From: Felis catus
Lineage: Eukaryota
Length of the DNA: 64,000 nt
Reading direction: 5' to 3'
Assembly (NCBI RefSeq): GCF_018350175.1
Contig: NC_058368.1
Location: forward strand, 88,972,001-89,036,000
Part shown: positions 1,560 to 36,462 of the stretch, piece after piece
Layout of the letters: each line of letters starts with the position of its first letter
How positions within the stretch are numbered: position 1 is the first letter of the stretch
Notes under the pieces: model-generated
Databases searched by the model: none
What the model was told of the DNA's origin: nothing
The model's input: only the letters and a program-made list of their open reading frames with translations
Position numbers and translations under genes: made by a program

Positions 1560-4500
1560 CCCTAGGGTTAGGTGCCTAAAAGTAGAGTGTGACACACTGT
1601 GTCTGCCCCCTACACCAACCGAGATCCCTGGTTTGTAGGTGAGTTTCAAAGTCATTCCTGACACAATGCTCTCAGAGGCTGATATTCCATAGGAGAGCTA
1701 CCCCCAATGTCCCTGCTCTCCTGGTGCTGGGCAGGCAATAGTATCAGAGGAATGGGAGCCACTTGGACTCCCGCCCCTAATGGATGGAGCTACCATCCTT
1801 TGGAAGAACAGTCTGTGAAAATACACCATTCTCCATGATATGATCAGTGCACCAAAAGGCTTTTGAATAAATAGCACACCAAGGTTTGTTCCCACTTCAT
1901 GATCATCACATGGAAGCACATTCTTCATATCACAGAGCCACTGGTGACCCTCTCTACAAATACGATGGGCTGAAACCCACAAGAATTCAAAGTTGTGCTC
2001 TAATTCTTAGGGGACAATGTGGGGCTCTTTCTCACAGGCTCCAAAGGGTATCTTTTGGAACACTCCTGTAGCCAAAGACCCCAAAAGTTCTTTTGATTCC
2101 TGTGTGAGCCAGATTGTGAATACATGAGCTAGTCAGGTTCTTGTAAACATGAACACTGGCCCTCAGTGTTTCTAGTCTCAGAAAATTGCTTTATCACCCA
2201 TCAAGGTTCATCTTGTGGTCCATAAAAACTCCGTCTTTTTGAGTATTATAGCCAGCTGTAGATGTCCAATGGGGACCAGCCCTGGTGACTGTGTGACAGG
2301 TAGAGCCAGAGACCCTGGTCTTGTGGCTTTAGGACTACATGGACATCCAGGTCCCTATGGCACCAAAAGGGGTCCAGTCAAGAGCTGTGCATGGGGAGGC
2401 TCAGGCAGAGGTATACTCCAGAAGCTGGCTTCCTTACTGGGTTTCGAGGAAATGAAGATAAATATCTCCATTCCACACTGATCACATTCCCATTGGATGG
2501 AACTTTTGAATCCCCTTTGGTCCTGGCTGCAGCCATCTCCTCTGCCTCCCTGTGTGTCCGACTGCCTCTTGATTCGCCCTTAGCAGCCATGAGCTGACAC
2601 ACACTCAGCAGGCACCCGAGGATGGGCATCGGGCTCTTACTCCATCCCTTGCTCAGTTATAGCCATCAGCATCGAATATACCAAGGGAGAATACTCCTCC
2701 TATCCGTGAGCTTGGTGGTTGGCTGTTTGTAGCAAGGGGTTGGGGGAGAGGAGCCACACAGCTTCCTTACTCTGTCTGATTGTGCCTTCCTTCTGAAAAC
2801 CAGACAGTTCACACAAGAGCTGTAGGCTCCAGAAGCTGGTCATCAGAGAAAGAGCCTTTACAGGAAGAGGGCACCAATGTCCCTCTCCACACTCTGGAGC
2901 CACAGCTAGGGGAACCTCTCAGCTACAGCACTGTCACTGCTCACTCCATTCAATCATGAAAAAAGCAGCAAAAGCCGACCAACTCCCAGGGATCTTTAGG
3001 TCCTTCTGAAAGAAAAAAGCAGGACTGGTGATGACAGGGCTCCCAGGTGGAGTCTCTAGAGGGCATACCTGCCTAAGCCCTCTGGTGATCTTTTTACAAT
3101 CAGGTTGCTAAGAACAGGCCCTGGACACTCCCCTCCTGGTAGAATTCCTCTTCCAAGCTGTGAAGAGCTCTGGCCCTCCTTGTTCGCTTTGACATATCTT
3201 TGATCTCTTGTAGAAACATGGTTCTGCCCACAATCCATTCAGAATCGGTGTCTCAAGAGCCCTATCCTCTGCCTTCCACCTTGGAGTGTGGTCCAGTCCT
3301 TATGACTGGGGATGAGATTCATAAATGCATTTGGCTTCAGAAGTATGTGACCATTCTGAGGCTGAGGGCATTTGAAGTGGTCCAGCAGACAATGTTTGGT
3401 GTGTAGGCTGGACCAGAGATTTTGGCAGGGAGCTGGCCTCCCTGTGGGCCAAGGGCAAATGAAGCAAGACATCTGTCTAAGGGAATCCTCATTCCCACTG
3501 GAAACGTCGAGTTTTGGCCCAACTGGTGCCCATTTCCTTTCCCTTGATGTGTGTCTGAAAATGTGTGTGTGTGTGTGTGTGCGCGTGTGTGTGTGTGTGT
3601 TCCTTAGGAGCCATGGTGTCATAACTAACTCAGCTAGTATCTGTGCCTAGGCCACATTCTCCCACTCTGCTCCTGTGCTCAGTGAGAGCTAACAGGCTCT
3701 GCTCTACCAAAGGAAAGAAGACCTTTCGTCCATGTGTACTTGGTGCTTGGCTTGCTGTGCTATGGAGGGGAAAGGAGAGCCAGCTTGCCTCACTGACCTG
3801 GGTGACTGAGGTGCCTTCATTTTGAAAAGCAGACAGGTTGCACATAGGCAATATGAAGGAGGAGGGGGTCAGCATTTCATGTGCCCTTGCCAGGAATGAG
3901 GGAACCAAGTTCTTGTAGCAGATTCCTGAATAAGAGCCCTCAGAACCCCCTGGCTACAGCTCAAACACTTCTGCCTCCCACTACCGATGGGGAAAATGGC
4001 ATGGATAGACCAAACCAAAAATCACTGCCTCCTAAAGAAAGAAGGCAGGCTTCTTGCTGATAGGACTCACAGGTGTAGTCCTTCAGAGGGCCCCCTTGGT
4101 CTAAGCCCACAGGCCTTTCTGATTCTCAATATGACCTGGTTGATAAGAGACTACACTGGGTACTTCATTCTCAACTTTCTCCAAATCTCATTTGTGGTGA
4201 AGAATTCTGGCAGTGTGTGTCTCCATTTCCCCTCCTAAACTTTTTTGATGAAAGAGGGTTTGCATGGACACTATTCTAGGACAGTGTGTCAGAAAAATAT
4301 CCTCTTGTTTCAACTTGGGGGTTTGGTGGTATGCCTGTGATGGTGATAGAGGTACTGCACTGGGCCCTTTTCAGTTTGGGTTCAGAATGATGTGGCCCTC
4401 CACATACCCAGGGCCTGTGAAGGTGCCCAGGGAGAATGCTCATGGGAAGTCAAAGCCCGTGGTTGAGGGTGGATCCCAACTCCTGTGTGGGGCAAGGAGA

Positions 4501-5040
4501 AGGAAAGGTCATGGTCTCCATCTGCGGTTTCCTCCATGTGCATTTGAATGCATAGCTTTGGCTCACCTTGTAGTCATTCCTCTTCCATTGCTGCATTTCT
4601 AACTTGGTCTCAGTTCACACACGGTTACCCTACCCTGTGTCTGTCACCTACACCAACCAAGGTCCCAGTTTAGGGGTGAGATTCCAAACTTTTCCTAACC
4701 CAATACAGGGCTCTCTGAGGTGATGTCCCAAAGGACACCTGTCCCCCCTGTCCCTGAGCCTCTGATTGTAGGCAGGCTACAGTATCATGCAAATGGGTAG
4801 CCACATGGACCACTGCCCCTAATGGAAGGAGCTACCCTCAATCAAAAGAACAGTTTGTACATATGCACCATGATCCCGGACGTGGTCAGCACACAAAAAT
4901 GCTTTTGAATAGAGCACCAAGTCCTTGTCCCACAATCTGATCATCACATGGAAGCACATTCTTCATAGGTCACAGCCAGTGTTGCCCCTTTCTACTAATA
5001 TGATGGCCAGAAGCACACCAGAAGCCAAAGTTCCCCCTTT
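1560..5040 (-). repeat. Block A of ~1-kb monomer complex repeat (~1.1 copies of the 3-kb higher-order unit; strand label arbitrary, opposite to block B)
   Basis: Anchor GAACWCTGGC-like at ~2151, 3165, 4201. CACCAACC..G.TCCC recurs at ~1613 and ~4651 (~3.04 kb apart). 4141-4175 is the reverse complement of the GAGAATGAAGTACCCA motif at 17240/20257/23267. Confidence 0.88.
3562..3600. repeat. (TG)n microsatellite
   Basis: TG dinucleotide run with a short CG interruption. Confidence 0.95.
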
Positions 5041-5853
5041 ATATACTGCCAGAAGCCAAGCTATCCAACCAGCCTGATGGCAGGGCCCAGGCAGTGGATG
5101 GATCGGGGCTGCTTGTACTCCTGCTTTTATGTAATTTGGCCTTAATAAAGTACCTGGGGAATTGTCTGTTGGGGAATTTCCCTCAACAGGCCCCCTGGGA
5201 AAAGAACCATTGGAAAAGAAATAAGGTTCTGCAAGGAATTGTGCAGCCCTACATTTAGCCCTTGCCACCCCCTATAAAGACTCCTCTACCTGAAGGAAGG
5301 ATAGCCTCATACATTTGCCAGCAAAGGAGGGACAAATGGATTTGAAAGCCCCACTCCGGCAACAAAGGAGTGTATCTATGGGCACAAATTACTCCAACCC
5401 CTAGGCCCACTTGGCCCCCAGGAGGCATTCCAGGTGATGACTGAACCTAGTCAGTTAAAGTACAGAATGGTTCATTAGTTCTAGGTGCATTGTCTCTCTG
5501 AGAATATATAAGGCATGGGTTCCTAAGGCACTCTTGGCCGCCTCCTGGCCCCTGGACTGAAGCGAACACTTTTGTTCCTCAAGCCACAAATGGTTCAGGG
5601 AAACAACTAAGAGGTCATGTCCTTGTAACTGTTCCACTTGAGGTGTTGAGAGATAGATGACTTTTTGTGACAACAGCAAAGCAAATGCTTTATAGATTAT
5701 AGAGAAACATAGATACATAATGAAAATAATGTAAGAAATTAATCAACAAGCAAAGGGCAGGAGGAAACATAATGAGAAAATAACCATGTTATTCCTTAAA
5801 GTGTGATTACACATAGGAACATTTTTAGAATTAGGTAATGCTAGAAAACATAG

Positions 5854-7640
5854 ATGACGTACGCTATAAGGAAAATTGTTAACGAATATAATGGCACGTT
5901 TGCTACAACAAAGTGGCCAGTTCAACACACTGCTGTTGTCTGTGTCCATTTTTATTCTTGTTTTATTTTTTTTCACTTTTTTGCTGATGCTGTTCATCCT
6001 TTGGGAACACCTGGACCTGCTGGAGCTGGACTCTGGCAGAGTTCATGGAAGGAGCCAATCTTAACCTGCCCTTTCAAACTGAACAAGAGCATTGGCTTTA
6101 TATGCCAAGACTTCAATGGTGGCTTACTTCAGCACCTCCTTATGTGTGTTACCGGCCTCAACAACTTTTCTGCTCGTATTAAACTAAAAATCAACTGTCT
6201 TTTGCCAAGTATAGCCCCAAACCTCTACAAGGACAGACAATTTTACCTTTTTCTCAGCCACAAGCTTTGATATACCTCAAAAAACAAGCACATCTCATAC
6301 TCCTAATATTATAGCCTGCTCTAGTCTCAAATATTCAGACCCGCCCCCCCACCCCCTGGAACATTATCCCCTGGACAACCTTATGGAGAAACTGAGCATA
6401 ATCTTCACTGGGGTAATTGGACTATTACTGACAGGGGTCCTGGAGGACATCTTGAAACAAAATATTCTAATAAGACCATAACCTTTGGCCAGCTTAATAG
6501 GGAGGATATTTTTTGAGAAAACGGAGGCTTGTCTGGCCCTGTAATTTGTGCACATAAAGGGAAATTAAAAGGACCTTGGCGTGTTAATCTATGGAAGCTA
6601 CGTCTTCCCTTCCTCACTCGTACTATTAGCCATGTTGACATTTATGTGAAAGAACACGCTAATCTAACTTGGGTCTCCCTGTTCAATAACCAATTCACAT
6701 GGACCACTATTTGCATCCATTCTCCCTATGTTCTCTTTGCAACCTCCACCTTACAGATCCGACAACTAGAAAATAATTATAATGTCTCTACCTCCCAAGG
6801 TTGGCTTATGTCCTGCGTAAGTAATGATAACATCACCCAATTAAACATCTCCTCTCTCTTTAGTACTTAGAGAGCGTGTCTCAACCTGGGTTCCTGTTAA
6901 TATCTCTGAGCCCTATATGCACCCATTAAGACTAGGCGCTCTTTCCAATCTTGTTCAATACTGGTACTCTGCTGCAAGGCAGAAAAGAATTGTTGGCCTG
7001 TTAACCGTGGGCATCCTAGCAGCAGTAGGCGTTATCACCTCTGCCACTGTAGCTGGAATCAGCCTGCATCATACTATCCAGACAGCCCATGTCCTTAATA
7101 AATTTATGGTCAACACCACCAAAGAATTCATGAGCCAAACTTCCACTGATAAACAAGTCTTGGCCCACATCGAAGCTCTTGAGGCTGCAGTAGAATTTAT
7201 TGGAGAAAGACAGGAGGCCTTTTTCCTCCACTCTAAACTTCCCTGTGTCCCTAACTACCAGCCTATCTGCATGACTGGCATTCCTTAGCTTGGGATGCTG
7301 TCCAGAAACACTTCCACAGTGTCTTTTGTTCCCACCTCTCTAACAATATAGTTTTAGATATGACTTGAGCCAACAGCTACAATATGCAGAGTACCAGCTT
7401 AAAAATGAATGGGCTGGTTCTTGGGAAATGTGGCATGTCCTAAATCCTTTCTCACTTACAGCTGGCACTCATCTCACATTCTGGATAACTTTGAGAAGTG
7501 GAATGCTTTTACTGTGTCTCTGCTTATGTCTTTGCAGAATCACCTTCCAAGCCATCCAAAAGCAAAAGAATGACCAGAAGCTCATCATGATGGTCCCGGA
7601 ACATGAAGCTAAAAGAACCAAGAAAAACAAAAAGGGAGAG
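5854..7640 (+). pseudogene. env: Endogenous retrovirus env remnant, betaretrovirus-type (class II)
   Basis: ORF 6917-7288 has a furin site RQKR, a fusion peptide (IVGLLTVGILAAVGVITSATVAGISL), a heptad region (LAHIEALEAAVEFIGERQ) and a CX7C loop (CVPNYQPIC). A hydrophobic anchor lies in ORF 7365-7766. Upstream SU-like fragments are broken by stops and frameshifts. A polypurine tract ends at 7640. The 5' limit is approximate. Confidence 0.85.
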
Positions 7641-7641
7641 C

Positions 7642-7845
7642 TGTGGGGGATAAGCTTAGGAATCCCCTGGGCTTACACAAATGGGTTCATATGGCATAAA
7701 GAAATACAAAGCCATAAAGTGCTCACTCCCGAGTTTGGGCAAGCCAGATTTGCACCCCAAGACTAGAGGGGTGCAAAGATACCCCGAGAATAGGGAGGCA
7801 CAAAGGTGCCAGGAATAAGGAGGTGCAATGGGGCCTCGCCCCACA
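7642..7845 (+). mobile_element. Short 3' LTR of the ERV
   Basis: Begins TGTGGGG right after the polypurine tract AAAAACAAAAAGGGAGAG and ends CCCCACA (inverted termini). Confidence 0.7.
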
Positions 7846-8229
7846 TGTGTTACAGAATTATGTGTACATGAGGAAACCTAGCGCTTCTGAGGGGCCCAGC
7901 ATGGAAAGTTTGCCTGTAGGCAGGCCCAAAGGAGTAAGGAGAATACCAGTCCTTCTGCAAGAAGAAAACACTGAGCCATACAATACATCTTCAGTTGTAT
8001 CCCATTCTGATTTGAATTGCAGATGAAGATTTCCTCTGGACTGGGCTTCCAGGTAAACCCAGTGGTGTTTTCCCCATTCCCCAGTGTGGAGGTGCTTACA
8101 ATTATGAAGACAGCCAGCTTCAGGTAGATTATATTAGTCACTCTATTCTCTGCTTCATCCCTTTCTCATAGGAAAAGAAGTACTCTGGCCCTCCATGTGT
8201 CCATTCCCATTCTGTCACTGGGTTTCTTT

Positions 8230-8278
8230 CTTTTTTTTGAAACCTGGTTTTCAACATTTACCATTTTTGAGTGAGCAA

Positions 8279-8313
<35 letters not shown>

Positions 8314-8479
8314 CCATGAGTGGGGGTAGGAACAAAAAGAGGGAGATAGAAAATCCGAAGCAGGCAACACTCTGTGAGTACAAAGCCTGATACAGGGTTA
8401 GACCTCACAACTATGACTTTGTGACCTGAGCTGAAATCAAGAGACAGCCACATGACAGACTGAGCATCCCAGGTGCCTC
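8230..8479 (-). mobile_element. Can-SINE with (CA)n tract
   Basis: Ends GAGCATCCCAGGTGCCTC (reverse-complement SINE head); T-rich tail on the left. Confidence 0.85.
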
Positions 8480-10109
8480 GTTCTTTTTTATTTCTCTAAT
8501 TATATGTTGGTTCCCACTAGGCACAGACAGCCTGTGAGAAATGGGTGATTGGTGGAAATTTCTCACACTGCTCCCCAGCTAACAAAGCATTCAGTTTCTT
8601 ATACACAAGAGGATCCACTGACCCCTGAGACTGATGACTTGGTGCTTGAAACCCTGGAGTTGGCATGGCAATAGTTAGACAGCAGAACTCCAACCACCGG
8701 CTGCTACGGATACCTTCATCTGAACAGCAGACAGTTCATCCATTTGCAGTATTCTTCAGGACCTGCAAAATGTGCAGAAACAACCCATTCAAGGACCAGT
8801 GCAACAGAGCCACTTTCTAAATACTTGAGGGTCAGCCACCAACCAGAAACTGCTAACTGTGTGGCATGACTGCCTCAGAGGACAGGAAAAAACAAAACAA
8901 AAGAAAAAAACAAAAAAACAATATCGAATGCCAGAAATGTTCCCTCTCCTTGTGAAGGAACAATGCAGGAGTTATCCCTTTGTTCTAGCACACACAGGGT
9001 TCTTACTCCTGAGACAACCATGTTGCCAAGAGATTGTTCCAGTCACTGCAGTTTCTTGCCATAACCCATTCTTTTCTGTTAATAGACAAGTTTGTTCTTC
9101 TGTGTCTTCTCCTCCACCCTGTTGCTTTTTCAAGCTCAGATCTCCCTGTTGTCCATTGAGGCCCATTGTCTCAGATCCATTTCCTCTTCTTTTAACTAGG
9201 AAGTCTGACCAAATTCTTGTCACTCTGGGATATGCTGGGCCACAGGGACCCTAAAAAATGGCCTCCCAGTACTCTGTTGACAAAGATAAGCCCGGGACAT
9301 TTCAAGGCACCTAGCAGGAATGCTTGTGTGTATTCAGGGTCAGAGGTATCAGGAGGGAGCTATCCTCACTTCTGGGCCAAAAGAAACATGGAGCTAGACA
9401 ATTCATTCTCAGATTTATTTCCATTCTCAGCTGAAATGAAAAACTTTGGCCCTGAGTGTACCCATTCCAATTCCCTGGGTGTATGGGTCCCAGGTAAGGC
9501 GAATGAGGCTGTCCCCCACATAGCGAGTGCCCAGCCAGTCCCAAGGAGCTCTGACTCTGCTCTGTGCTAACCAAGAGCAATCAGCTGCTGATATCCCAAA
9601 GGAAAGATTGCTTTCCTGGGAGTATTGGTGTTTGTGGCTGGGTGATGAGGGAATGATGGTTAGCCATCTTCTCTCCCTCCCTGACTGTTAAAGAAGCTGT
9701 CACTCTGAAGAGCAGTGGGTTCACCTATGGGCAGTATTCTTGAGGACCTGCTTAGCACTGAAAGAGACCAATCAAGAATACTGCACCACAGACCAGCTGA
9801 AAACACTTGAGCACAAACCCACTACCCTTGAATCGCTGCTGCCTTTATCCACTGATAGGATGGGAAAGGAAACCAGTGAACTCGCAAAGCTTTCCTTGTC
9901 TCTCTCAAGTAACAATACAGGCATCTTTCCATGAGGGCTCCCACTGTAAACTGTGGAGGTTTCCCTCTGCCCTAGTCCACATGTGTTTCTTTTTGCAGAG
10001 ACAGTCAGCTGGCCAGGAGATTGTACTAGTCATTTCGTCCTCAGACTGATCACATTCTCATCTCTCATAGGAACCCTGTCCCTCTGTGTATCTATTTCCA
10101 CTCCTTTCC

Positions 10110-10598
10110 TCTCTTTGTGTTTATTTTTATTTTTGAGAGAAAGGGAGGGCACGAGAGTGAGTGTGTGTGCATGTGGTGAGGGATTGAGAGGGAGGGACAG
10201 ATGACCTCAAGCAGGCTCCTCCATGCTGACAGGAGAGAACTTGATGTGGGGGGTCCATCTTGCAACCATGAAATCACACCCTTCGTGATAAACTGATGCT
10301 TAAGCAACCGAGCCACCCAGGAGCCCCATTCTTTCTTTCTTTTACTTTTTTAAGTATTTATTTAATTTTCAGAGAGAGAGATCGAGAGACCCACGGAAAG
10401 AGAGAAAGAGAGAGAGAGAGAGAGAGAACAGAGGATGGGCTGAGAAAGAGAGAGAGAGACAGAATCTGTAGCAGACTTCAGGCCTCAAGCTGTCAGCAGA
10501 AACTGTAACACAGGACTCGAACTCACGAACTGTAAGATCATGACCTGAGCTGAAACCAAGAGTCAGAGGCTTAAGCGACTGAGTCATCCAGGTGCCCC
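10110..10598 (-). mobile_element. Two adjacent Can-SINEs (~10110-10327 and ~10345-10598)
   Basis: Two reverse SINE heads (GAGCCACCCAGGAGCCCC and GAGTCATCCAGGTGCCCC), each with a GA-rich tract and T tail. Confidence 0.88.
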
Positions 10599-13500
10599 TT
10601 TTTACTCTTCTTAAAAGTAGAATCAGCCATGGGCAAATCTGGCCCCTGGTTCAGAGCAATTCCCTCTGATTTTAATTGGTGATTCTGGATGAGTTCTTGG
10701 GACCGCAAAACAGGTTGAGCCATAGGAGCCCTGCAATATGTCTTCCAGATCTACATTGACAACATTAGATGCAGGTCAGTGGAAAGTACCTAGCACAGAA
10801 CATTTGAGTGTAGCTAGGGCCAAAAGGGTTGGGAGGCAGCTGACCTCAGTACTGGGGCAAAGGCAAATGGAGGGAGATATTTCTCTCTCAGCTTTCTTCC
10901 ATTCCCATCTAAAATGAAACTTTGGCTGTCCGTAGAGCCATTCCCATCCCATTGCTATTTGCTAAGTAGGACTTGGTTCGCAGGCTGGGTGGGCCAGTAG
11001 GGCTGTCAATCACACAGTGAGCTGCCAGGGATTGCTGGTGAGTTCTTATGCTGCTTCTCTGATAACCAAGAGTAATTAGTTTCTGACAACCCACAGGGAA
11101 GATTGCTTTGCTGTCAGAAAGCACTTAGTGCCTGGCCTCATATTCTGAAGAGCACAGGATCCACACGTGCAAGGTATGTTCCAGGACCTAGTCAGTGCAG
11201 ACAGAGGCTCTTAAAAACCTAATGTGCCACAGGAATGGTTCCAAACACCCCCTGAATCTCTGCTGCCTCTATCCCTGTAGGGAAGTACAGGAAAAACAGG
11301 CAAGGTCAGAAGCTTTCCCTCCCTTTCAGAAGGAAATATGCAGACCTCCTGCAGACTGGGCTTTCAGGAGGTTTCCCTTTAGAGGTTTCCTTTGTCTCTA
11401 GCCACAGGAGTTTCTTACTCCTTAGACAGGACCCTGTCAGGAAGTTGTCCTTGGAGACACTTCATTGTAATCTATGTCCCATTCTCATAGATATTGAAGC
11501 ACTTTGGCTTCCAGATTTCCATTGCAATGAATACTTTTTTCTGTTTGCAAATTAGTTTCTCCCTGAGTGCCATTCAGAACCAGTCTCAGAGAAATATCCT
11601 TTCTTTTAAGATGGGGAATCGGCCAAGTCCTGATGTCTCTGGCATAATTGGGACACAGGACCCTTCATTATGTGCCTTTCAGAAGTGGGTGGGCAATGGG
11701 AGACATAGGGCCCTTGAAGGTGCCCAGCAGAGTTTCCATGTACAGACAATGTGAGAGTTTGGGAGGGAGTGGCCTTACTTCTGGTCGAAGGAGAAACTAT
11801 GTTAGACATTTCATTCCTGTCTTTACCCTAATCGCCTCTAATGTAGAAGCTTGGCTCTCCTTATAGACCTTTCCATCTACTTTCTGTTTTAATAACTAGG
11901 TCATGGGTCACAACCAGGTAGAATTGGTTTGTCAGCCACACACCCAACATACAGAAAATTTGTGATGAAATACCATTCTGGTCCTGTGCTATGTGAGAGC
12001 AATCAGTGCCTTTATCCCGAAGAAGAATGACTCTCCTGCCCATGAGAGCCTGTTGCTTGACTGGCCCAATCTTTGTGATTGGTAGCCAGCTGGCCTCCCT
12101 CCCCTGCCTGATTGAATTGTCTTCATTCTCTAAGGCAGATGGACGGGGAATGTATAGTAGATTGCAGGAAATTCAGCCCAAAAAAGCCTTAAAAAGAATA
12201 CTGCATCATGACTTGGTTAAAAAACCTAAAGCACCCTCAGGAGCACTGTTACCAGGAATTAGTTCCCTGAGGTTTAGGGCATACAAAGGAGCCAAGGTCA
12301 GGATCCATCTTTCTCTTTCTGATGGAAAAGTGCAAGCCTTTTGCCAAACACCCAGGTGTAGGCAATGGATGTTTCCCTTTGCCCCTGCCCACAGGTGTTT
12401 CTTACTAGAGACAACAGCTTCTCCAAAGATTGTGCTATGCACATCCTTGTCGGCTTCATTCTGCTCTCCTTTGGAATGAAGCACTTTGACCCTCTGGCAA
12501 TTCATTTCCTTCCTTTTCCTCTTTTTTTCAAACTAGGATCATGCTGGAGTCCATTCAGAATCAGTGTCTCAGAGCAACATACTCTAATTTAAATAGGGGA
12601 CTCTGGCTGTGTCCTGGTGACTCTGGCATAGATTGACAACAGGACCTCTTGTAACTTCCCATGAGAAACTCTGTTCACAGTGAGAGGTCTAGGGCATATG
12701 AAGGCCTTGGGTATGGGTGGATGTGTGTAGGAGGTCCCAGAGGATTGTGGAGGAGCTGGCCTTACAGATGCAGCAAGGAGAAATGAAATAAAGTACATAT
12801 ACATGCCCAGCATTACCTCAGTCCCATCTGTAATGTAGATCCTGACCTCCTGTGTAGCCATTCCCACCGATTTGCTATTTTCTAAGTCTTGGGACACATT
12901 CAGGGATGACTGGGCTTTCCCTCACTTCACACACGCAGAGCCCAAAGAAATGTGCTAAACTCTCAGTCTGGTCCTGTGCTATGTGAGAGCAAACAGTAAT
13001 TTCAAATCAAAGGAAGGATGGGCTTCTTGTCCCTGAGTGCTTGGTGCTTGGCAGCTCTGGTAAGTGCAGTGAAGGGTCAACCTCCCTTCACTCTGTCTCA
13101 CAGATGGTTCCTATAGGCACATTATGCTTTGGGACCTGGTCAGCACAGAAAGGGCTCTTTAAGAACTACTGCATCAGGTCCAGGTTCCTTGACCACCCCT
13201 GACAACCAGCTGGGAGCAGGAACCCCTTGCCTCTGCATCAATGGTGCATCTATTTCCTGATGGGAAGGACAGGAAAACCCACCAAACCCAGGTTTCCCTC
13301 TGTTTCTGAAGGAAGAACACAGGCCTCCTGCAGAATTGCCCTCTCAGATGGAGCCAATGGAGATTTCCTTGGACAACAGCCCCCACCCATATCTTATTCC
13401 CCACACAGTCAGCCTGCCAGGAGATAGGAGTAGGCACTGAAATCTCACTTTAGCCCATTCTCTTCTGTAATGAGGAACTCTGGTCCTCGGGCTGCTTATT

Positions 13501-14814: not shown

Positions 14815-15357
14815 TTAGGTGCAAAGACATGAACAGCCCTGTGCATCAAGGCAGTGCCATAGTAGCCTCAGTGGCCCAGCAAAACCACCAGTGGTCATGG
14901 TGTGGCAACCATGGCATTGGGCTGTGCAGTGCTGTCCTCCTTCAGCATAGTCAACGGTAGCAAAAGTGATAGTTCTGGTGGGCAGGACTAGGCCCAACAC
15001 AGCTCCAAGGACCGTGGCAGAAGGCAGGGACTGCCACATAGGGTGGAATCCACTAGAGCCGCTCCTGATGTTTGCCTCCTTACCAGTTCACTTCTTCCAG
15101 CCCATGTTTGGAAGATTAAAGTGCTCTCACATGGGTGCCCTCACATGAAATGGATAAGCATGTTATGATGTGGTGAAGAAAGCCAGGGATAACCTATATG
15201 GAGGGTGATCTGAGTCAAGACGCTGGCCAGTGTGCGATATGCCTGGAAGAAATGCAGAGGGTGGTACTAGAGCAGGCTTGCCTTGTCTACTCATATATCA
15301 CTGGGGTTGCATGGGTTTGAAATAAGTACTTCTTGCCCTGAGCTTCATTCAAATAAT
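14815..15357 (+). pseudogene. ZNRF2: Processed pseudogene of the RING-H2 E3 ligase ZNRF2
   Basis: Manual translation across frameshifts gives GAK..., FSIVNGS, GRDCHIGWNPLEPLLMFASLPVHFFQPMFGRLKC, PSHEMDKHVMMW*RKPGITYMEGDLSQDAGQCAICLEEMQ, GGTRAGLPCLLIYHWGC, FEISTSCPE. These are colinear with ZNRF2 as recalled (GRDRPVGGSPGGPRLVIGSLPAHLSPHMFGGFKC...KPRITYNEDVLSKDAGECAICLEELQQGDTIARLPCLCIYHKGC...FEVNRSCPE). No introns; stops and frameshifts present. Confidence 0.88.
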
Positions 15358-15419
15358 GTAACCAAATCCCATTTTATAGGTATTCTTGTCTTTTCAAGAT
15401 GCTTCAACCCCGAGAGGCT

Positions 15420-18400
15420 CTGAGGATCTTCCTAGCCAAATAAATCCAAAACCACAGGCCTGTTTGGCCAGAAATCCGAGTTCTGTGAGACTCATGCAGA
15501 GATGAACCATCACCCAGGGAAAAGGATGCTGCTGAAGAGCCAGGGGCCCTTAGGCCAAACATCTGCCACAGTCACAATGACTGGACCAGAATCCCAGGTC
15601 AGGGCCCAGGATACGACACTAAGAATTAAAATAGTGCAAAGAGGTGACAATGGATAGAGGGAGGGCCAGAGTTCTGTATCAGGGATAATGAAGTGATGTG
15701 ACTGACACCATCTTCCCCAGCTTGCTGACTGACTCAGGATGGAGAAACACCTGTGGGCTTTGGCAAATGGTGGCATCCACAAGTTTCACCTGCAGGCGTC
15801 ATCAGCAAGAAGCCTGCCCAGATCCTTCCTTCAGGATCAGAGGGAAGATTGGCTCTGGGTATGTGTCCTGCCCTTGCCATCCGTGCATAGTGGTAGCAGT
15901 GATACAGCTGTAGGAGGGCTGTGCTGTCCAGCGATGGAAGTGTTTGGAAGCATGTCTTGTTGCAGGATTCCATGCAAAGGTGCTTTCTGTGCTGAGCAGA
16001 TCCTGGGCTATCCTGCCCACATGAAAAGCTGCTGTTCTTCAAAAGGAAGGGATCTCTATTAGTGAGGGGAGGGAGGCCAACTGGATACCCATGCTCATGC
16101 ATACACTATCCAGCTAAGCAACACCATGTGCTCAGGGAGAGAAGGGCCAGGTTTCCTCTGGGATAATGGACCCATATACCTTCAATTTCCTCAGGAACTC
16201 ACTGAGAAAGTGGCACCATTCGTACAGCCATGGCTCCCAGAACATGAACAGAGACCTAGCTAGGAAAGCAGCCTTGGGATGTGCATGAGTACAACAGTGC
16301 CAAGTTCTACATCTCCAAAGGGCTGGCATCCACTGACGAAAAAGATATCTTTCTTCATCAGCTCTGGATCCAGACAGGAGGCCAACTTGATTGCTAAAGC
16401 TTCTGGCTTAGCCTACCCACAAGCATGTTCCACTGGGCACCTCCAGATTCTCTAGGCCTGATGGTGTCCACAAATTCTGAAACCCAACCACAGGATGCCT
16501 GTGGCCAAACCTATTGCACACTCACCAGCATTGCACCAGACTCCCAGCGTAAAAGGAAAGTACATGACTCTGAGACAATGGCTCTGAAACAATTCCAGGG
16601 AGACTCTTGTTTCCAAAGAAAGGAAATTGTTTACTATACTATAGAAGACTACTAAACAACAAAAGCTCAGGGACATGAGAATCAATTGTCCTCTGGGACA
16701 TCAGACACTCAGAACCCTCCACTGGCTCTGGAACTGACTGGAAATTCACTTACAATCCTTGTAACTCAGTTGTGTATGGGAGAGTCACTTGGTCCCAGTG
16801 TGTGAAGTGAGACCAAATTAGAAAATCAGCAATGGACAGGGATGACTACAAGGTGAGTCAAAGCTATCCATTCAAATGGGCACGAGGGAAATTGAGGAAA
16901 GAGACCTCTACTTTTCCTTCCTTTTGTCCCACAAAGGGGGCGGGATCCACTACTAACCTCTGGCTTACCCTACCCACAAGCATTCTCCCTAGGTGCCTTC
17001 ACACACCTTAGGTTTGGGGAAGGCCATATCATTCTGAAACCAAATTAAGAAGGACCCAATGGAATACCTCTGTTACCATCACAAGGACACCATGAACCCC
17101 ACAAACTGAAAGAAGAGGATATTACTCTAAGACTCTGTTTGGAATAGTCTCCATGCAAACCCTCTTTCATCAAAGGGCTAAGGGGTGACAGTGGAGACAC
17201 TGCCAGAGTTGTTCATCATGCATGAGATTGGAGAATGTTGAGAATGAAGTACCCAGCATAGTCTCCTGTCAACTGGGTTGTATCCGGAATAAGAAAGACC
17301 TGTGGGTTTAGCCACGGGAGCCCCCTGAACTACTACACCTGAGATACCTGTCAGCAAGAAGTCTGCATTCCTGCTTTGGGATCCAGTGATTTCTGGATTG
17401 TTGTATCACTGCCACGTTTCCCATCATTTGAGGGAGGCAGCATGCTTGAGCTGTAGCTATAGGGTTCTGAGGGCTCTTGCTCAGGAATATGCAACAAGGA
17501 CTTGGTTCCCTAATTTCTGGCAAGGGCTCTTCCAGTGCTGACTCCCTCCTCCTCATTTATACCATCCATGTGTAAACCATTTGCTTCTCAGAACAGAGGC
17601 AAGTCAATCATCAGGTCAGTGGGGCAAGCTGGCTCCCCTTCACCTACCATAGCACAAGCCAAGCACCAAGCACCTAGGGACTAAAGACGTTCTTTTCTTT
17701 GGTAGAGCAGAGGCTGATAGCTCTCTCTGAGCACAGGAGCAGAGTGATAGTTTGCAGCCAACCCAGGGATGCCAGCTGAGTGAGTGATGGCCCCATGGCC
17801 AGAACAGGTGAAAAATAATAAATTGTCAGAAATACAGCAAGGGGGAGGAACTGGGTGCCAGATAGGTCCAACCTCGACATTTCAGAAGAGGTTTTGCTTC
17901 ATTTGCCCTTGACCCAAAAAGAAGCCAGCTCCCTCCCAAATCTCTGGCCCAGTCTACACACAAAACATTCTCTGCAGGTCCACTTCAAATGCCTTGGGCC
18001 TCTGAATGACCACATACTTTTGAAACGCAGTGAATTAATGAAGATGGAGCCCTGTGGCAAAACCTCTCCCCCAGTCACAAGTACCGGACCACAATCCGAG
18101 GAAGAAGGCAGAGGATAGGACTCTTGAGACACTGACTCAGAAGTGACCATGAGAAGAACCTTGTTTCTACAAGACAGCAAAGATGTGTCAAGGTGGATAA
18201 GAGGGCCAGAGTTCTGCAGACCTTAGATGGGGAATTCTATGGAGAAGGGAGTGCCCAGCACCAGCTCCTGGAAATCTGGTCCTAAGAAGAAGAAACACCA
18301 GAGGGCTTAGGCAAAGGTGCCCTCTAGTGTCTCTATCTGGGAGCGCTGTCAGCTACAGGCCTGCCTTCTTCTGTCAGAAGGACCTAGAGAGACCTGGGAC

Positions 18401-21400
18401 CTGGTCTGCTTTTCTTGCTTTTCCTATCATTGGATGGAATAGGCAGTGAAAGTGCTGTACCTGGGAGATTCCCGCATCTGTGGCCCCAAAGTGTGAAGAG
18501 GGGCATTGGTGCCCTCTTCCTGTGAGGGCTTTTTATGTGCTTACCAGCTTTTGGAGCCTACAGCTCCTTTGTGGATGTGTCTGCTATTCAGAAGGAAAAC
18601 ACCTCAATCAGGCAGACCAAGGAGGCAATCTGGCTCCACTCCCCCAACCCCCGACCCCTTGCAACAAATGGCCAAGCGCCAAGCTCAGGTGTAGGTGGGC
18701 TATTCTGCTTTGGGATATCCTAAGCTCATAGTTGTTACTGAGCATGGGACCCAGTGGGAAGCCAACGCCCATCCCTGGGTACCTGCTGAGTTAGTATCAG
18801 CTCCATGGCTCCTAAGGTTGAATGAAGAGGCAGTCAGAAATATAGGAATGGCTTCATCCAGGACCAAAGGGCATTCGATATTTCCATTCAATGGGAAAGC
18901 GATCAGTGTGGAATGGACATGCTTATCTTCACTTCCCCTAGGCTCAGCAAGGAGGCCAGCTCCCTCTAATACATCTGACCCATCCTCCACACAAACAGTC
19001 CTCCCCACAAACAGTCCTTGGCTGGACCCCTTCTGATGCCCAGGGCTCTGGATGTCCATGTAGTCCTAAAACCAAAAGGCCTAGGCTCCTTCGGTGCCAC
19101 CTGTCCCACAGTCATAAGGGCTGGTACCTATGGGACATCTGCAAGCTGGAGATAGTACTCTGAAAGACTGAATTTGTATGGACCCCAAGGCGAACCCTGA
19201 TGGATGATAAAGCAATGTCATGAAACTGGAAACAATGAGGGCCAGAGTTCTTCATGTTTGGAAGAAGCTGACTGGCACAATTATTCAGAAGCTGGCTTGC
19301 TCAGGACTCACAAGAGCCTTTTGTGGGCATTCGCTACAGGACTGCTTCAAAGGATGCTCATTGGAGGCCTGTGAACAAAAGGCCCGCCTTCTCCCTTAAG
19401 AAACAGAGGGGATCTTTGGCTTCTGGTGTGCTTTGCCCATTGTATCCGTCACAAGGGGCAACAGAGTTTCAGAGTTATGAAGAAGGTGCTTCCATGTGAC
19501 GATTAAGAGGTGGGAATGAGGCCTTGGTGCAGTGTGTATTCAAAAGGCTTTGTGTGCACTGATCAGTTCGTGGAGCATGCTGAACATGCAAAGACCATCT
19601 GTTTTGATGAATGAGAGTAGCTGCATCCATTAGGGTGGGGGAGTCCATGTGGCTACTGTAGCCGGCCCAGTGCCAAGTCCTCAAGGACAGGGGGCTAGCT
19701 GTCTTCTGGGATATCAGACTCCGGGAGCACTGCATTGGCTCAGGAAAGCCATGGAAACTCACCTCCATACCAGGGACCTTGGTTGTTGTAGGACACAGAC
19801 ACACGGTCTCCGTGAGTGAACTGAGATTGAGTTGGGAAAGCAGAAATGGGAGAGGAATGGCAATGGGGTGAGTCAAAGTTGTGTACTCAGACTGGATGGG
19901 GGACACCGAGGAGGGAGACCGACAACTTTACCTCCCCATGTCGCACACAGGAGGTGTGATCAAACCCCAACTTCTGGCTTAGCCTACCTGCAAGCATTCT
20001 CCTTGTGTACCTGCACAAACCCTGGTCTGGGGAGGGTCACATGATTCTGAAACCAAATTAGGAAGGGCCCAATGCAACATCTCTAGCAGCATCATAAAAA
20101 CACCACCAAACACCCAAGCTGAGAGATGAGAGGACTTTGAGACACTATCTCAGAATAGTTTCCATACAAACTGCCTTATATCAAAAGGGCTAAGGGTTGG
20201 TAATGGAGACACACACTGCCAGTGTTCTTCATCACACAAGAGATTTGAAGAAAGGTGAGAATGAAGTACCCAACGCAGTCTCCTATCAACCAGGTTGTAT
20301 CCAGAATAAGGAAGCCCTGTGGGCTTAGGCCAAAAGGGCCCTCTGAGGAACTACACCATGGAGCCCTGTCAGCAAGTACTTGCATTCTTTCTTCAGGAGC
20401 CAGGGATTTCTGGCTTGGTTATCCCCACCACTTTTCCCATCAGTTGAGGGAGGCCACGGCGCTTGAGCTGTAGCTATTGTGTTCTGAGGGCTCTTGCTCA
20501 GGAATCTTCAACAAGGACTTGCTTCCCTCATTCCTGGCAAGGACTCTTCCAATGATCACTGCCTCCTCCTTCATACTGCCCATGTGCAAACTGTCTGCTT
20601 CTCAGAATGGAGGCACGTCAATCATCCAGGTCAGAGAAGCAAGCTGGCTCCCCTTCACCATCCATAGCACAGCAGTCCAAGCACCTAGGGACTCAAGGCC
20701 TTCTTTCCTTAGGTAGAGCAGAGCCTGATAGCTCTCAATGAGCACAGGGGCAGAGTAGAGTTTGCAGTACCCAGGGGTGCAAACTGAGTGATTGATGGCT
20801 CCATGGCTCCTAAGGGACAAAAAAGAATAAATCGTCAGAAATTCAGCAAGGGGAAGGAAATGGGCACCAGGTAGGCCAAAGCTTGGCAATTCCAGTGGGA
20901 ATGGGGATCCACTTGGAAAGAATATGTCTTGCTTCAATTTCCCTTGGCCCAGAAGGAGGCCAGCTCCCAAATGTCTGGCCCAGCCTTCACATCAAACATC
21001 CACTGCTGAGTCCCTTAAAATGCCCTGGGCCTCTAAATGGCCACATATTTTGAACCCCAGTGAACTAATGAAGAAGGAGCCTTGTGGCAAAACGTCACCC
21101 CAGTCACAAGGACTGAACCAGACTTCCAGGTGGAAGTCAGAGAATAGAACTCTGAGACGCTGACTGTGATGGATTGTGGGAAGAAAATTGTTTCTACAAG
21201 AGAACGAAGATGTGCCAAGGTGAATAAGGAGAGCTGGAGTTCTGCAGAACTTGGATGGGGAAGTCTTTGGGGAAGGGAGTGCCCAGGACCTGCTCCTGGC
21301 AATCTGGCTCTCAGAAGAAACACCAGAGGGCTTGACAGTGGCGCCCTCTAGTGTCTCATCTGGGAGCCCTGTCAGCTACAGGCTTGCCTCCTTCCTTCAG

Positions 21401-24400
21401 AAGGAGCTAGAGAGCCCTGGGACTTTGCTTTGCTTTCTTTTCCCATCATGAAATGGAGTGGGCAATGACAGCGCTCCAGCTGGGAGCTTTTCCAGCTATG
21501 GCTCTAAAGTGTGGAAAGGGGCGTTGGTGCCCTCTTCGTGTATAGGGCTTTTGTGTGCTGACCAGCTTCTGGAGCTTACTGCTCCAGTGTGAACTGTCTG
21601 CTATTCAGAAAGAAAACACCTCAATCAGGCAGAACAATGAGGTGAGCCTGCTCCTCTCCCCCATTCCCCTTGATTCCAACAGCCAAGCACCAAGGTGAGG
21701 AGTAGGAGGCTTATTCTCCTTTGGAATATCAGATACTCATGGCTGGTACTGATCAGGGCACCCAGTTGGAACCCGACACCCATCACTGGATGCCTACTGA
21801 GTGAGTGCCAGCTCTATGGCTCCTAAGGGTGCATGAAAAGGCAGTCAGGAACAGGGGAATGGCCTCAGCCAGGACCAAAGGGTGTTCAATAATTCCACCC
21901 TATGGGAATGCAACCAGTGTGGAATGGACGAAGTTTATCTTTATTTCCCCTAGGCCCAGCAAGGAAGCCAGCTCCCAGGTAATACATCTGGCCCAGCCTC
22001 CCCAAATATAGCTCTCAGCTGGACTCCTTCTGAAGCCCTAGGGCTCTGGATGCCCATGCAGTTCTGAAACCAAAGAGGCTGGTCTCCTTTGTCTCCACCT
22101 TTCTCACTCTCATAAGAGCTTTCCCCTTTGGGCATCTGCAGACTGGAGATAGTACTCACAAAGACTAAATTTGTATGGACAAGATGAACTGTAATGGATG
22201 ATACAGCAATGTCATGAAACTGGATGCAACGAGGGCCAGAGTTCTTCATGTTTAGAAGACTTAGACTAGCACAATGTATTCACAAGCTGGCTTGCTCAGG
22301 AATCACAGGGACCTTTTGTGGGCTTTCACTACAGGAGTGCTCCAAAGGATGCTCGTTGGAGCCCTGTGAGGAAGAGGCCCACATTCTTGCTTAAGAAATA
22401 GACAGGAACTTTGTCTTCTGGTGTGCTTCTGCACATCGTATCCATGGAGAGGAGCAGCAGAGATTCTGAGGTATGAAGAAGTTGTTTCCATGTGATGATC
22501 AAGAGGTGGGAATGAGAGCTTGGTGAAGTATATATTCAAAAGGCTTTTTGTGTGTTGATCATGTCATGGAGCATGCTGGCCATGCACAGACGGTCTGTTC
22601 TTCCAAATGAGCGTAGGTCCATCCATTAGGGGCAGGGTCCATGTGACTACCCATTCCCATGATAGTGTTGCCTGCCAAGCACCAAGGGTTCAGGGACAGG
22701 GGGGCTTGGTGTCCTCTGGGATATCAGACCCTGCGAGCCCCTCATTGCCTCAGGAAGGGCTTGGAAACTCACCTGCACTGCAGGGACCTTGGTTGGTGTA
22801 GGGGACAGACACAGGGTCTCTGTATGTGAACTGAGACCAAGTTAGAAAAGCAGCAATTGGAGAGGAATGACAAGGAGAGCCAAAGCTGTGCATTCAAATT
22901 GGCATGGGGGAACAAAGGAAAGACACTACGACCTTGCCTTCCCCTTGTCCCACACAGGAGGCGAGATCCACCCACAACCTCTGTCTTAGCCTACCCACAA
23001 GGCATTCTCCCTGGGCACCTGCACACATCCTGGGTTTAGAGAGGGCCACATCATTCTGAAACCGTATTGAGAATTGCCCAATGCATCACCTCTATCACCA
23101 TCACTAGAACACTACCAAATCCCCAAGCTGAAAGAAGAGGATATTACTCTGAGACAGTGTCTCAGAATAGTTTCCATGCAAACTGTCTTTCATCAATAGC
23201 GCTCAGAGGTGGCAATGGAGACACACATTGCCAGCATTCTTCATCACACATGACTTGGAGAAACTAGAGAATGAAGTATCCAGCACAGTCTCCTATCAAC
23301 CAGGTTGTATCCAGAATGAGAAAGGCCTGTGGGCTTAGGATAAGGGAGGACGCTGAAGGATTACACCTGGGACCCTTGTCAGCAAGAAGCCAGCCTACTT
23401 TCTCAAGGAACCAGGGATTTCTGACATGGTCTATCCATGCCATTTTCCCCGTCAGTTGAGGGAGGCAGCAGTGTTTGAGCTGTAGCTATGGGGTTCTGAG
23501 GGCTCTTGCTCAGGAATCTGCAACAAGATTTGGTTCCCTAATTCCCAGCAAGGGCTCTTCCAGTGCTCACCCCTCCTCGTTATAGTGCCCATGTGTGAAC
23601 TGTGTCCTTCTCAGAATAAAGGCAACTCAGTCATCCAGGTCAGTGAGGAAAGCTGGCTCCCCTTCACCCTCTATAGCACAGTAGGCCAAGCACCAAGCCC
23701 CCAGGGACTCAAGGCATTCTTTCCTTTGGTAGATCAGAGCCTGAATGCTCTCACTGAGCACAAGAGCAGAGTGGGACATTGCAGCCCACCCAGTTGTGAC
23801 AGCTGAGTGAGTGATGGCTCCATGGCGCCTAAGGGAGAAAAAAAATACATTGTCAGACACACAACAAGGGAAAGGAAATGGATACCAGGTGGGCCAAAGC
23901 TCGTCTTTGATGGTGGGAATGGGGATCCACTTGGAAACATGGCTTTATTCCTTTGCCTCTGCCCAGAAGGAGGCCTGGTCTCTACCCAAATCTCTGGCCT
24001 AGCCTAAACACCAGACATCCTCCACTGGTACCCTTCAAATCCCTGAGCTCTGAATGGCTGCATACTTCTGAAACCCAGTGAATTAATGAAGAAGTAGCCC
24101 TATGGCAATATCTCTCCCACAGTCACAAGGACTGGATCAGACTCCCAGGTGGAAAACAGAGGATAGATTCTTGAAACACTGATTCTGAATGGATTACAGG
24201 AAGAGCCTTGTTTCCACAAGACAGCAAGCATGTGTCAAGGTGGATAAGGAGGGCCAGAGATCTTCAGAGCTTGGAAGGGGAACTCTATGGAGAAGGGAGT
24301 GCCCAGTACCAGCTTCTGTTAACCTGGCTGGCTGTGAGAAGAAGAGACAACAAAGGGCTTAGGCAAAAGTGCCCTCTAGAGTCTCCTTCTGGGAGCTCTG

Positions 24401-25790
24401 TCAGCAACAGGACTGCTTTCTGTCTTCTTAAGGACATATACTACCCTGGGACTTGGTTTGCTCTTGTTGCTTTTCCCATCATTGAATGGAAGGAACAGTG
24501 ACACTGTTGTAGCTTGGAGGTTCCCAGAGCTGTGCCTCCAGTGTGTGGGGAGGGGCATTGGTGCCTCTTCAGAACAAAGCTTTTTCTGTGCTGACCAGCT
24601 TCTGGAGCCTACTGCTCCTGAGTGAAATGTCTGCTTTCCAGAAGGAAGGCATCTCAATCAGGCAGATCAAGGAGGTGAGCTGGCTCCCCTCCCCCCTGCC
24701 CCTGGCTACAAACAGCCAAGCACCAAACTCTGGGATAGGAGGGCTATTCTCCTTTGCGATATCTGATGCTTATGGCTGGTAGTGAGCATGGGACTGAGTG
24801 GGAAGCCGACGCCTGTCCCTGAGTGCTTTCTTAGTAAATTCCAGCTGCAAGTCTCCTAAGAGTGAATGAAGAGGCAGTCAGAAAGACAGAAACAAAGGGA
24901 CAGGATATGACTGCAGCCAGAACGAAAAGGCATTCAATATTTCCATCAAATGTGAATGCAATCATGTGGAATGGAGATGTTTATCTTCATTTCCCCTAGG
25001 ACCACCAAAGAAGCCAGCTTCCTGCCAATATGTCTGGCCCAGTCTCCACACAAGCAGCTATCGACCTGACCCCTTCCAAAGCCCTTATGCTCTGGATGTC
25101 TATGTAGTCCTGAAACCAAAGGGCCAGGGACACTTTGGCTACACCAGTCCCAAAGTCACAAGGGCTGGACCGATTGGACATCTGCAGCTGGATATAGTAG
25201 TCTGAAAGACTGAGTTTTTATGGACCAGAAGACAAAACTTAATGGATGAGAAAGCAACATCATGAAAGTGGATGCACTGAGGGCCAGAGTTTTTCACGTT
25301 CAGAAGAGCCTGACCAGCACAATGAATTCATAATATGTCTTGGTTAGGAATCACAAGAACATTTGGATGTCCTTTGGAGCCCTGTGAGCAAGAAGCCCAC
25401 ATTCTCCCTTAAGAAATAGAGTGGGGTGGCGCCTGGGTGGCTCAGTCGGTTGGGTGACCAACTTAGGCTCAGGTCATGATCTCGCAGTTTGTGGGTTGGA
25501 GCCCCACATCAGGCTCTGCGCTAAATGCTTGCTCTGAGCCTGGAGCCTCCTTTGGATTCTGTGTCTCCTTCCTTCTCTGCCCCTCCCCCACTTGTGCTCT
25601 GTCTCACTCTCTCAAAAATAAAGAAGTGTACAAAAATTTTTTTAAAGGAAATAGAGGGGAAATTTGGCTTTTGGTGTCCATCATATTAGTAGAGAGGGGC
25701 AACACTGGCTGTGACATGTGAAGAACGTGCTTCTATGTGATAATCAGATTGTGGGAATTAGGCCTCAGTGTCTATTCAAAAGCATTGGAA
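15420..25790 (+). repeat. Block B: ~10 monomers of ~1.01 kb; 16.9-25.8 kb forms three ~3.01-kb higher-order units
   Basis: Monomer anchor GAGGGCCAGAGTTCT-like at ~15661, 17200, 18201, 19237, 20215, 21229, 22231, 23228, 24250, 25279. Higher-order anchor GAATGAAGTAYCCA at ~17242, 20259, 23269. Confidence 0.92.
25423..25646 (+). mobile_element. Can-SINE inserted in last monomer of block B
   Basis: SINE head and tail with target-site duplication GAAATAGAG. Confidence 0.92.
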
Positions 25791-32507: not shown

Positions 32508-32545
<38 letters not shown>

Positions 32546-36235: not shown

Positions 36236-36462
36236 GGGGCACCCGGGTGGCTCAGTCGGTTGAGCATCCGACTTCGGCTCAGGTCATGATCTCACAGTCC
36301 GTGAGTTCGAGCCCCACATCAGGCTCTGTGCTGATGGTTCAGAGCCTGGAGGCTGCTTTGGATTCTGTGTCTCCCTCTCTCTTTGCCCCTCCCCTGCTCA
36401 TGCTCTGTCTCTGTCTCAAAAATAAATAAAAACATTTTTAAAAATTTTAAAAATAAAAAAAT
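36236..36462 (+). mobile_element. Can-SINE in L1
   Basis: SINE head and tail with imperfect TSD AAAGTCTCTTACA / AAAGTCTTTTACA. Confidence 0.93.

Follow-up and report, generated by a model that had tools for sequence, protein, structure and literature searches.

A 64,000-nucleotide stretch of the Felis catus contig NC_058368.1 (assembly GCF_018350175.1, positions 88,972,001 to 89,036,000; hereafter the window) carries about 19 kb of worn, non-coding tandem monomers of ~1.0 kb. The analysis indicates that this array is probably a fossil macrosatellite with a three-monomer higher-order repeat (HOR), embedded in an old duplicon found on multiple chromosomes: a neutral relic that was dispersed together with its flanks and was not homogenized afterwards. 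An earlier note on this DNA had treated the repeat as a single local array; the same unit, truncations, short interspersed elements (SINEs) and flanks were found on at least 12 chromosome-size contigs. Contigs of the assembly are denoted below by handles, C1 being the one that carries the window.

A monomer profile was made from nine monomers of block B. Searching with it returned 28 pieces totaling 18,740 bp between window positions 1598 and 25770, i.e., ~19 monomer equivalents, in agreement with the approximately 20 copies counted before. Block B comprises nine near-full monomers arranged head-to-tail at a spacing of 0.96–1.04 kb, and the profile starts fall within ~8 bp of each of the anchors previously listed at intervals of ~1.01 kb. 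The division into three blocks was also confirmed, with the orientation corrected: block B is in plus orientation, whereas blocks A and C are in minus orientation. Further monomers adjoin the window directly to the left of its start, together with a 113-bp satellite. Tandem Repeats Finder, run with a longest period of 500 bp, reported no array in the window because of this period limit.

The 3-kb period was evident in two analyses. Self-BLAST aligned window positions 16687–22402 with 19700–25420 at 76.7% identity over 5.8 kb, and block A (1591–5036) aligned with block B solely as the reverse complement, at 73.5–75.9%. Among the offsets between identical 9-mers within 16601–25500, the 20-bp bin at 3000 held 418 matches, against a median bin of 1, and the bins at 6020 and 6040 held 146 and 141; side peaks were found at 1000 (42), 2000 (44), 4020 (39) and 5000 (18). 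The 14-base motif GAATGAAGTAYCCA, which the earlier note had placed at 17242, 20259 and 23269, was recovered at all three positions on the plus strand and once more at 4157 on the minus strand (four matches, 0.10 expected).

Pairwise comparison of the window monomers confirmed that every third one is much more alike. Monomers of the same type (13 pairs) were 75.1–81.3% identical, with a mean of 78.5%, and those of different types (32 pairs) 46.7–58.7%, with a mean of 54.1%. A maximum-likelihood tree was built from 92 near-full monomers. They were drawn from the 216 profile hits of ten regions, and only pieces spanning at least 850 profile positions were included. The three-phase clustering predicted for such a tree was recovered: clades a (23–26 monomers), b (26–29) and c (12), a sister clade c0 (6) and the block C monomers (18, in three to four subclades) received Shimodaira–Hasegawa-like support of 0.97–1.0, with several chromosomes mixed in every clade. 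Three properties of a HOR were found, namely head-to-tail monomers, a fixed order of types and greater likeness between HOR copies.

The order of types in block B is c0, a half monomer, a-b-c, a-b-c, a-b and the initial 200 bp of another c. The a-b-c order is as claimed and is repeated 2.7 times in this block; block A adds b-a and partial c copies. Block C was rightly described as monomeric and more diverged, having no HOR structure. Its three near-full monomers are 57–60% alike, each is 79% identical to a counterpart on C47, and they belong to separate clades shared with C16, C37, C47 and C2. A basal position of the block C copies was not clearly borne out, as the midpoint-rooted tree groups them with c and c0.

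To assess the distribution of the repeat, the genome was searched with the 3-kb unit (12 of 153 candidates scored, 45 matches) and with monomer a (40 of 234 candidates scored, 40 matches), the counts being lower bounds in both cases. The 3-kb unit yielded at least 45 matches at 71–84% identity on C1 (also at 0.05–0.16 Mb), C2, C11, C16, C37 and C47, and monomer a added C8, C10, C13, C17, C18, C39 and C42. The family thereby extends to at least 12 chromosome-size contigs and the unplaced contig C8. All eight further loci that were fetched proved to be tandem arrays with the same landmarks, and the scored matches included no solo or dispersed copy, all of them lying in array clusters. The array profile scores of C8 (149,549 bp) are near-identical to those of the C2 locus at 70.68 Mb, and C8 probably represents the same place, assembled a second time or in an alternative form.

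The loci share details that reach beyond the monomer itself. The junction at which the strand switches, with profile positions 1–607 and 558–996 on one side and 857–946 and 1–996 on the other, is repeated at C11, C37 (twice), C13 and C47, and the half monomer following c0 (profile positions 461–996) is a landmark truncation that recurs across loci. Window positions 13865–16445 are 90% identical to C11. The spacer at the switch (14650–15535) matches C37, C47 and C11 at 75–79% and is part of the ancestral duplicon, and flanks outside the arrays are homologous among loci over 2–6 kb at 75–84%. The SINE interrupting the last c monomer of the window (c3) occurs in the same orientation and at the same monomer position (~176–208) on C11, at C1:0.05 Mb and at C2:60.93 Mb, with a fragment on C16. 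Given the shared truncations, flanks and accompanying satellite, the segment that was copied was composite and at least 45 kb long. The shared segments vary by locus in their extent and order. Most pairs are 75–88% identical, below the 90% customary for segmental duplications, and only the switch region compared with C11 reaches 90%.

Younger rearrangements were also observed at several loci. On C2, the arms of a palindrome at 60,139,381–60,147,504 (plus) and 60,207,029–60,215,153 (minus) are ~100% identical, with branch lengths of 0.000–0.001 and a spacer of ~60 kb. On C47, the arms at 52,004,894–52,008,294 (minus) and 52,038,628–52,042,028 (plus), ~30 kb apart, have identical or near-identical profile scores. 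Both of these young palindromes are superimposed on the old duplicon. Two sampled stretches of C37 (24,770,869–24,773,000 and 24,800,001–24,802,132), offset by 29,132 bp, show 100% identity across 2,132 bp, reflecting either a very recent duplication or an assembly artefact.

The relative order of amplification and dispersal can be read from the positional counterparts. For all 14 near-full monomers of the window, the best match at another locus (79–90%) exceeds the best match within the window (58–81%), and the tree pairs monomers across chromosomes by array position, e.g., window a1 with C11_17123 at a support of 1.0. Since these counterparts are closer than the neighbors, the trimer array predates its dispersal and has not been homogenized since. 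The SINEs common to several loci at the same monomer position place the dispersal after their insertion; we take these SINEs to be carnivore-specific, and the dispersal would therefore fall within carnivores. The HOR copies are ~21% apart, and positional counterparts at other loci differ by 10–21%. For comparison, reciprocal best cat–dog matches have a mean identity of 78.9% (PMC4138527, supplement Table S3). On such a rough clock, the trimer amplification is estimated to lie near the cat–dog split and the dispersal later, within carnivores. The proposal that an older monomer array was amplified as a trimer was borne out by the clades and by the difference between 78.5 and 54.1%; its placement at this locus was not, as the closest relatives lie elsewhere. 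The trimer array was already complete when it reached or left this locus within a large duplicated segment.

We propose the following course of events. A much older array of ~1.0-kb monomers would have existed first, out of which unequal exchange likely amplified the a-b-c trimer. SINEs would then have inserted into the trimer array, before an inverted duplication and the dispersal, with flanks and the 113-bp satellite, to at least 12 chromosomes. All copies would subsequently have drifted apart without further homogenization, and local deletions, an endogenous retrovirus (ERV) insertion and young palindromes would have been added at some loci.

Within the window, block B (15536–25435, plus strand) was delimited by profile matches, tree clades, the identity matrix and the 3-kb period. 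It opens with a scrap at 15536–15623 and the c0 monomer at 15666–16625, assigned by its profile match and clade, followed by the partial monomer at 16652–17174. According to the profile, the typed monomers start at 17203 (a1), 18206 (b1), 19242 (c1), 20219 (a2), 21237 (b2), 22236 (c2), 23231 (a3) and 24254 (b3), and the beginning of c3 spans 25284–25435 (profile positions 1–201). Direct reading of the sequence identified a tRNA-derived carnivore SINE inside c3 (25426–25645, plus), with a target-site duplication of ~15 bp (GAAATAGAG..GGGG). It resembles other SINE copies of the window, and a sister copy at 36242–36326 was recognized as tRNA-like by ARAGORN. The remainder of c3 (25648–25770, plus, profile positions 176–309) forms the end of the array.

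To the left of block B, a spacer of ~0.9 kb (14650–15535) marks the point at which the profile layout flips from minus to plus. Block C (8545–14649, minus), the older monomers, consists by profile matches of near-full monomers at 9123–10042, 11540–12485 and 12517–13483 and of partial pieces at 8545–9056, 10650–11138, 11141–11506, 13510–13586, 13596–14196 and 14223–14649, all on the minus strand. An old SINE at 10409–10598 is common to C47 and C16. Blocks A and C are separated by an interruption at 5037–8544, which was delimited by BLAST against other loci, the profile and Pfam. Its segment 5047–6039 is shared by other copies of the duplicon, and ~6040–7830 is specific to the window, with no counterpart at the other loci by BLAST. 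This middle part, which carries a fragment of a retroviral transmembrane (TM) envelope protein at 6845–7285 (plus; Pfam GP41, E=1.1e-09), is a later insertion. Monomer scraps follow at 7819–8188 (minus, profile matches), and a SINE with an (AC)n run lies near 8280–8450, where alone RNA reads pile up.

Block A (1598–5036, minus), which had been taken for about one more trimer of the block B array, is instead a piece of a mirrored sister module. Its profile matches comprise a partial c-type monomer at 1598–2151 (profile positions 12–597), a b-type monomer at 2186–3173, an a-type monomer at 3201–4210 and a second partial c-type monomer at 4240–5036 (profile positions 184–993), all on the minus strand, with the b and a types assigned by clade membership. 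The nearest relatives of the block A monomers, at C2:60.93 Mb and C1:0.05 Mb, are 84–86% identical. At both of these loci the SINE-bearing c monomer runs straight into the block A counterparts, then a 3-kb flank and the 113-bp satellite; in the window, the corresponding continuation lies 20 kb to the left, inverted. Monomer positions 184–309 occur twice, once where block B ends and once at block A's inner end, and these segments are 83.6% alike. A 1.7-kb inverted repeat, aligned by BLAST at 83.2% over 1721 bp, brackets the complex: its right copy spans 25961–27647 (minus), and its partner, on the opposite strand at C1:88,967,518–88,969,222, lies 2.8–4.5 kb left of the window start, on the left side of the satellite. 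The agreement of these two values points to an old inverted duplication of the whole module. On the simplest reading, blocks C and B make up a single module, block A and the upstream 113-bp satellite are the outer part of the mirrored sister module, and the complex is what remains of an old palindrome from whose arms different parts have been lost.

The chromosomal setting of the family is likely to be pericentromeric or subtelomeric, judging from its neighbors and positions. C2 has a second locus at 70.68 Mb (fractional position 0.42); otherwise there is one main cluster per chromosome-size contig. The clusters lie at fractional positions of 0.36–0.37 on C1, C2 and C10, 0.19–0.24 on C11, C13 and C16, 0.49 on C17, 0.39–0.40 on C37 and C39, 0.14 on C42 and 0.41 on C47, values that fit the grouping of cat chromosomes by size and shape, as we take it to be. 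The literature yielded no numeric positions of cat centromeres. Two loci, at the start of C1 and the end of C18, lie within 160 kb of contig ends. The description of the unit as euchromatic appears doubtful, as the array adjoins the 113-bp satellite, forms one main cluster per chromosome and occupies positions compatible with centromeres.

The satellite accompanying the 1-kb arrays occurs at multiple loci with a period of 108–114 bp (mostly 110–113) and is worn, with ~63% matches between units. It was found at C1:88,969,351–88,970,493, 1.5–2.6 kb left of the window, and at C37:24,866,000–24,880,600, where it fills a 14.6-kb palindrome center in two inverted halves. By period length alone, it may correspond to TR-113A-FC, a cat tandem-repeat family (PMC4138527, supplement Table S13), or to Ajub113A, which is predicted to be pericentromeric in the cheetah (PMC4676127). 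The ~1-kb monomer was also considered as a decayed 9-mer of this satellite (9 x 111 = 999), an idea that was rejected: a profile of the 111–113-bp satellite, run at full sensitivity, was silent in the arrays and matched only the true satellite left of the window, and the monomer consensus is free of any internal period. A 33-bp repeat at C37 accounts for just a small portion of the duplicon.

We tentatively consider a more specific scenario, which we regard as possible though unlikely: the 1-kb arrays and the 113-bp satellite could be the fossil of a centromeric satellite that an early feliform or carnivoran ancestor possessed, with a kilobase monomer and a three-monomer HOR, which spread to most chromosomes while active and was then abandoned and decayed. 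If so, the clusters would mark past centromere positions on each chromosome, and the two copies at chromosome ends would be traces of repositioning or fusions.

It is improbable that the array works as a chromatin or RNA element like DXZ4/FIRRE, i.e., as a macrosatellite whose every unit is bound by an architectural protein or from which a structural RNA is made. The kilobase tandem units, the 3-kb period, which we take to be that of DXZ4, the presence of the family on X as well as on autosomes and the detection of half of the sampled words in two metatranscriptome runs speak for it. The arrays themselves do not: conservation is flat along both the 3-kb unit and the monomer, with no block standing out, and the copies, at 75–81% identity, are not homogenized. 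The CTCF core, as we assume it, was found in no monomer, its two matches in the window (34028 and 53432) both lying outside the arrays. The CpG observed/expected ratio of the monomers (0.11–0.12) equals that of a control stretch, and the sole Rfam match was a mitochondrial 12S/tRNA insert in another part of the window. Poly-A and single-cell RNA reached a depth of 0–0.5 over the arrays, with peaks only at SINEs, in two libraries used without a positive control. In run X24, 4004 of 4069 placed reads lay only partly on the window stretch. The contigs of the two metatranscriptome runs show even coverage throughout, the pattern expected of host DNA, and evidently stem from carried-over host DNA. 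Gut and ‘mammal’ metatranscriptome runs (X16–X19) contain the locus at an even, low depth, which calls for caution in taking them as evidence of expression. We infer that the array, in which no sign of function was found, is neutral.

Still less probable is that the arrays are the repeats inside a very large mobile element, such as a giant transposon or an integrated large virus, inserted at many sites. The copies on multiple chromosomes do have a common complex internal layout with inverted arms, and the 1.7-kb inverted repeats bracket the complex in the window. Against this, the extent and order of the shared segments differ by locus, as in mosaic segmental duplications, and there is about one main cluster per chromosome rather than scattered insertions, with the scored matches free of solo or dispersed copies. 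Pfam scans of 214 open reading frames (ORFs) of at least 75 aa in the window and 108 of at least 100 aa in the flanks detected no transposase, polymerase or capsid domain. No transposon domain was matched in the arrays or shared flanks, and no dispersed copy occurred among the scored matches; no systematic search was aimed at element ends.

The same scans bear on hidden coding potential, as they returned only L1, ERV and MGAT1 and a few weak sub-threshold matches outside the arrays. Among the 97 ORFs of at least 75 aa at 4–25718, the sole match was the ERV envelope fragment in the gap. The monomer consensus contains no stop-free run longer than 116 aa and no internal period. The earlier statement that no reading frame is conserved across copies was thereby upheld. 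A decayed tandem gene or exon array, formerly coding and now a pseudogene array, is rated a shade below the mobile element: the kilobase triplets are reminiscent of exon-triplet arrays, the NBPF Olduvai triplets being an example, but the array ORFs carry no Pfam match, the consensus has no long open frame, and conservation is uniform without exon-like peaks. An assembly artefact, i.e., a mis-joined or falsely expanded repeat, can practically be dismissed: repeat-rich regions are error-prone and the C37 pair is fully identical, but monomer differences of 19–53% make a mistaken collapse or expansion impossible, 0.77–0.80 of the sampled words occur in 14 DNA-type runs from several studies, so that the array sequence is real, and contigs of independent runs match the window stretch with few differences.

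Several points nevertheless weigh against a fossil macrosatellite within an old duplicon. Types a, b and c are 46% apart, above what neutral decay since a tandem duplication would give at mammalian rates, which suggests an early history that was far older or more rapid. The age estimates depend on SINE sharing and an approximate clock, and the RNA result has the narrow base given above. At the monomer position of the c3 SINE, the two mirror loci on C2 (60.14 and 60.21 Mb) carry a younger SINE in the opposite orientation; the copy at 60,144,084–60,144,287, like its mirror, is 86% identical to the probe, compared with 75–79% elsewhere, and may reflect re-use of the site or replacement. The cluster on the X contig lies 1.3–1.8 Mb beyond a SPIN4-like gene. 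Sampling around the C37 and C47 clusters detected no large satellite, the samples comprising 20 around the C37 cluster and 20 from the interval separating the SPIN genes from the X cluster. Finally, the monomer may match a known element. No described cat repeat of ~1 kb was found in the literature, and a catalogue of cat tandem repeats (PMC4138527, supplement Table S13) lists no ~1-kb family; judged from this one catalogue, the novelty of the family is provisional.

The rest of the window contains several further features. A nest of L1 fragments at 27649–39557 includes inverted pairs at 70–81% identity and remnants of ORF1, endonuclease and reverse transcriptase (RT) domains. A nuclear insert of mitochondrial DNA lies at 42006–43013 (minus), with an Rfam match to small-subunit rRNA (141 bits), an adjoining tRNA and a weak Pfam match to the MOTS-c peptide. 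A weak NDUFA12-like match at 49624–49875 (minus; E=0.004, below the Pfam cut-off) is possibly a fragment of a processed pseudogene. An intact single-exon MGAT1 gene (GNT-I family, E=1.4e-211) with an open frame of 459 codons occupies 54980–56356 (minus), and presumably anchors the window to a region near the end of human chromosome 5q.

Old HOR satellites and multi-chromosome duplicons are both well known, and as a fossil repeat the array is ordinary. Its whole history is readable because each monomer keeps an identifiable counterpart on other chromosomes. With one landmark cluster on most cat chromosomes, the family could, if pericentromeric, serve as a tracer of carnivore centromere and fusion history. 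Because its divergence puts it beyond the reach of standard tandem-repeat finders, the monomer may be missing from cat repeat catalogues.

The likeness to alpha-satellite HORs drawn in the earlier note holds for structure. In both systems, diverged monomer types stand head-to-tail in a fixed order (here 78.5% identity within types versus 54.1% between them), and older monomeric material, represented by block C, lies beside the HOR block. It does not extend to homogenization, as the copies are 75–81% alike. Unlike alpha-satellite, the cat monomer measures ~1,000 bp rather than 171 bp, each array contains only 3–4 trimers, and the HOR copies are ~21% apart as opposed to 0–5%. Concerted evolution is likewise absent, positional counterparts on other chromosomes being closer than neighbors.

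Mammalian macrosatellites such as DXZ4 and D4Z4 share with the cat arrays a tandem unit of at least 1 kb and a 3-kb period. The cat unit differs from DXZ4 in having no CTCF-like core, in the form we assume for it, and from D4Z4/DUX4 in having no open reading frame, and the cat copies, unlike both, are old, diverged, multi-chromosomal and embedded in duplicated flanks. Carnivore macrosatellites are also known from Martes, where the majority of chromosomes are described as carrying repeat fractions pericentromerically (PMC9957230). The likeness is one of description: unlike the cat arrays, the Martes repeats are abundant heterochromatin blocks visible by fluorescence in situ hybridization (FISH), and the four Martes probes tried on the domestic cat are reported to have yielded no signal (PMC9957230). 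TR-113A-FC and Ajub113A resemble the neighboring satellite in period (108–114 bp) and multi-locus occurrence, a comparison that concerns the satellite and not the 1-kb monomer.

A parallel in overall arrangement is offered by the pericentromeric and subtelomeric duplicons of primates, which are generally known as large mosaic segments on many chromosomes, with inverted pairs and young palindromes. As in the cat, there is roughly one cluster per chromosome, with some copies at chromosome ends. Most cat copies differ from them in being 75–90% alike, below the usual 90% threshold, which points to an ancient duplication wave.

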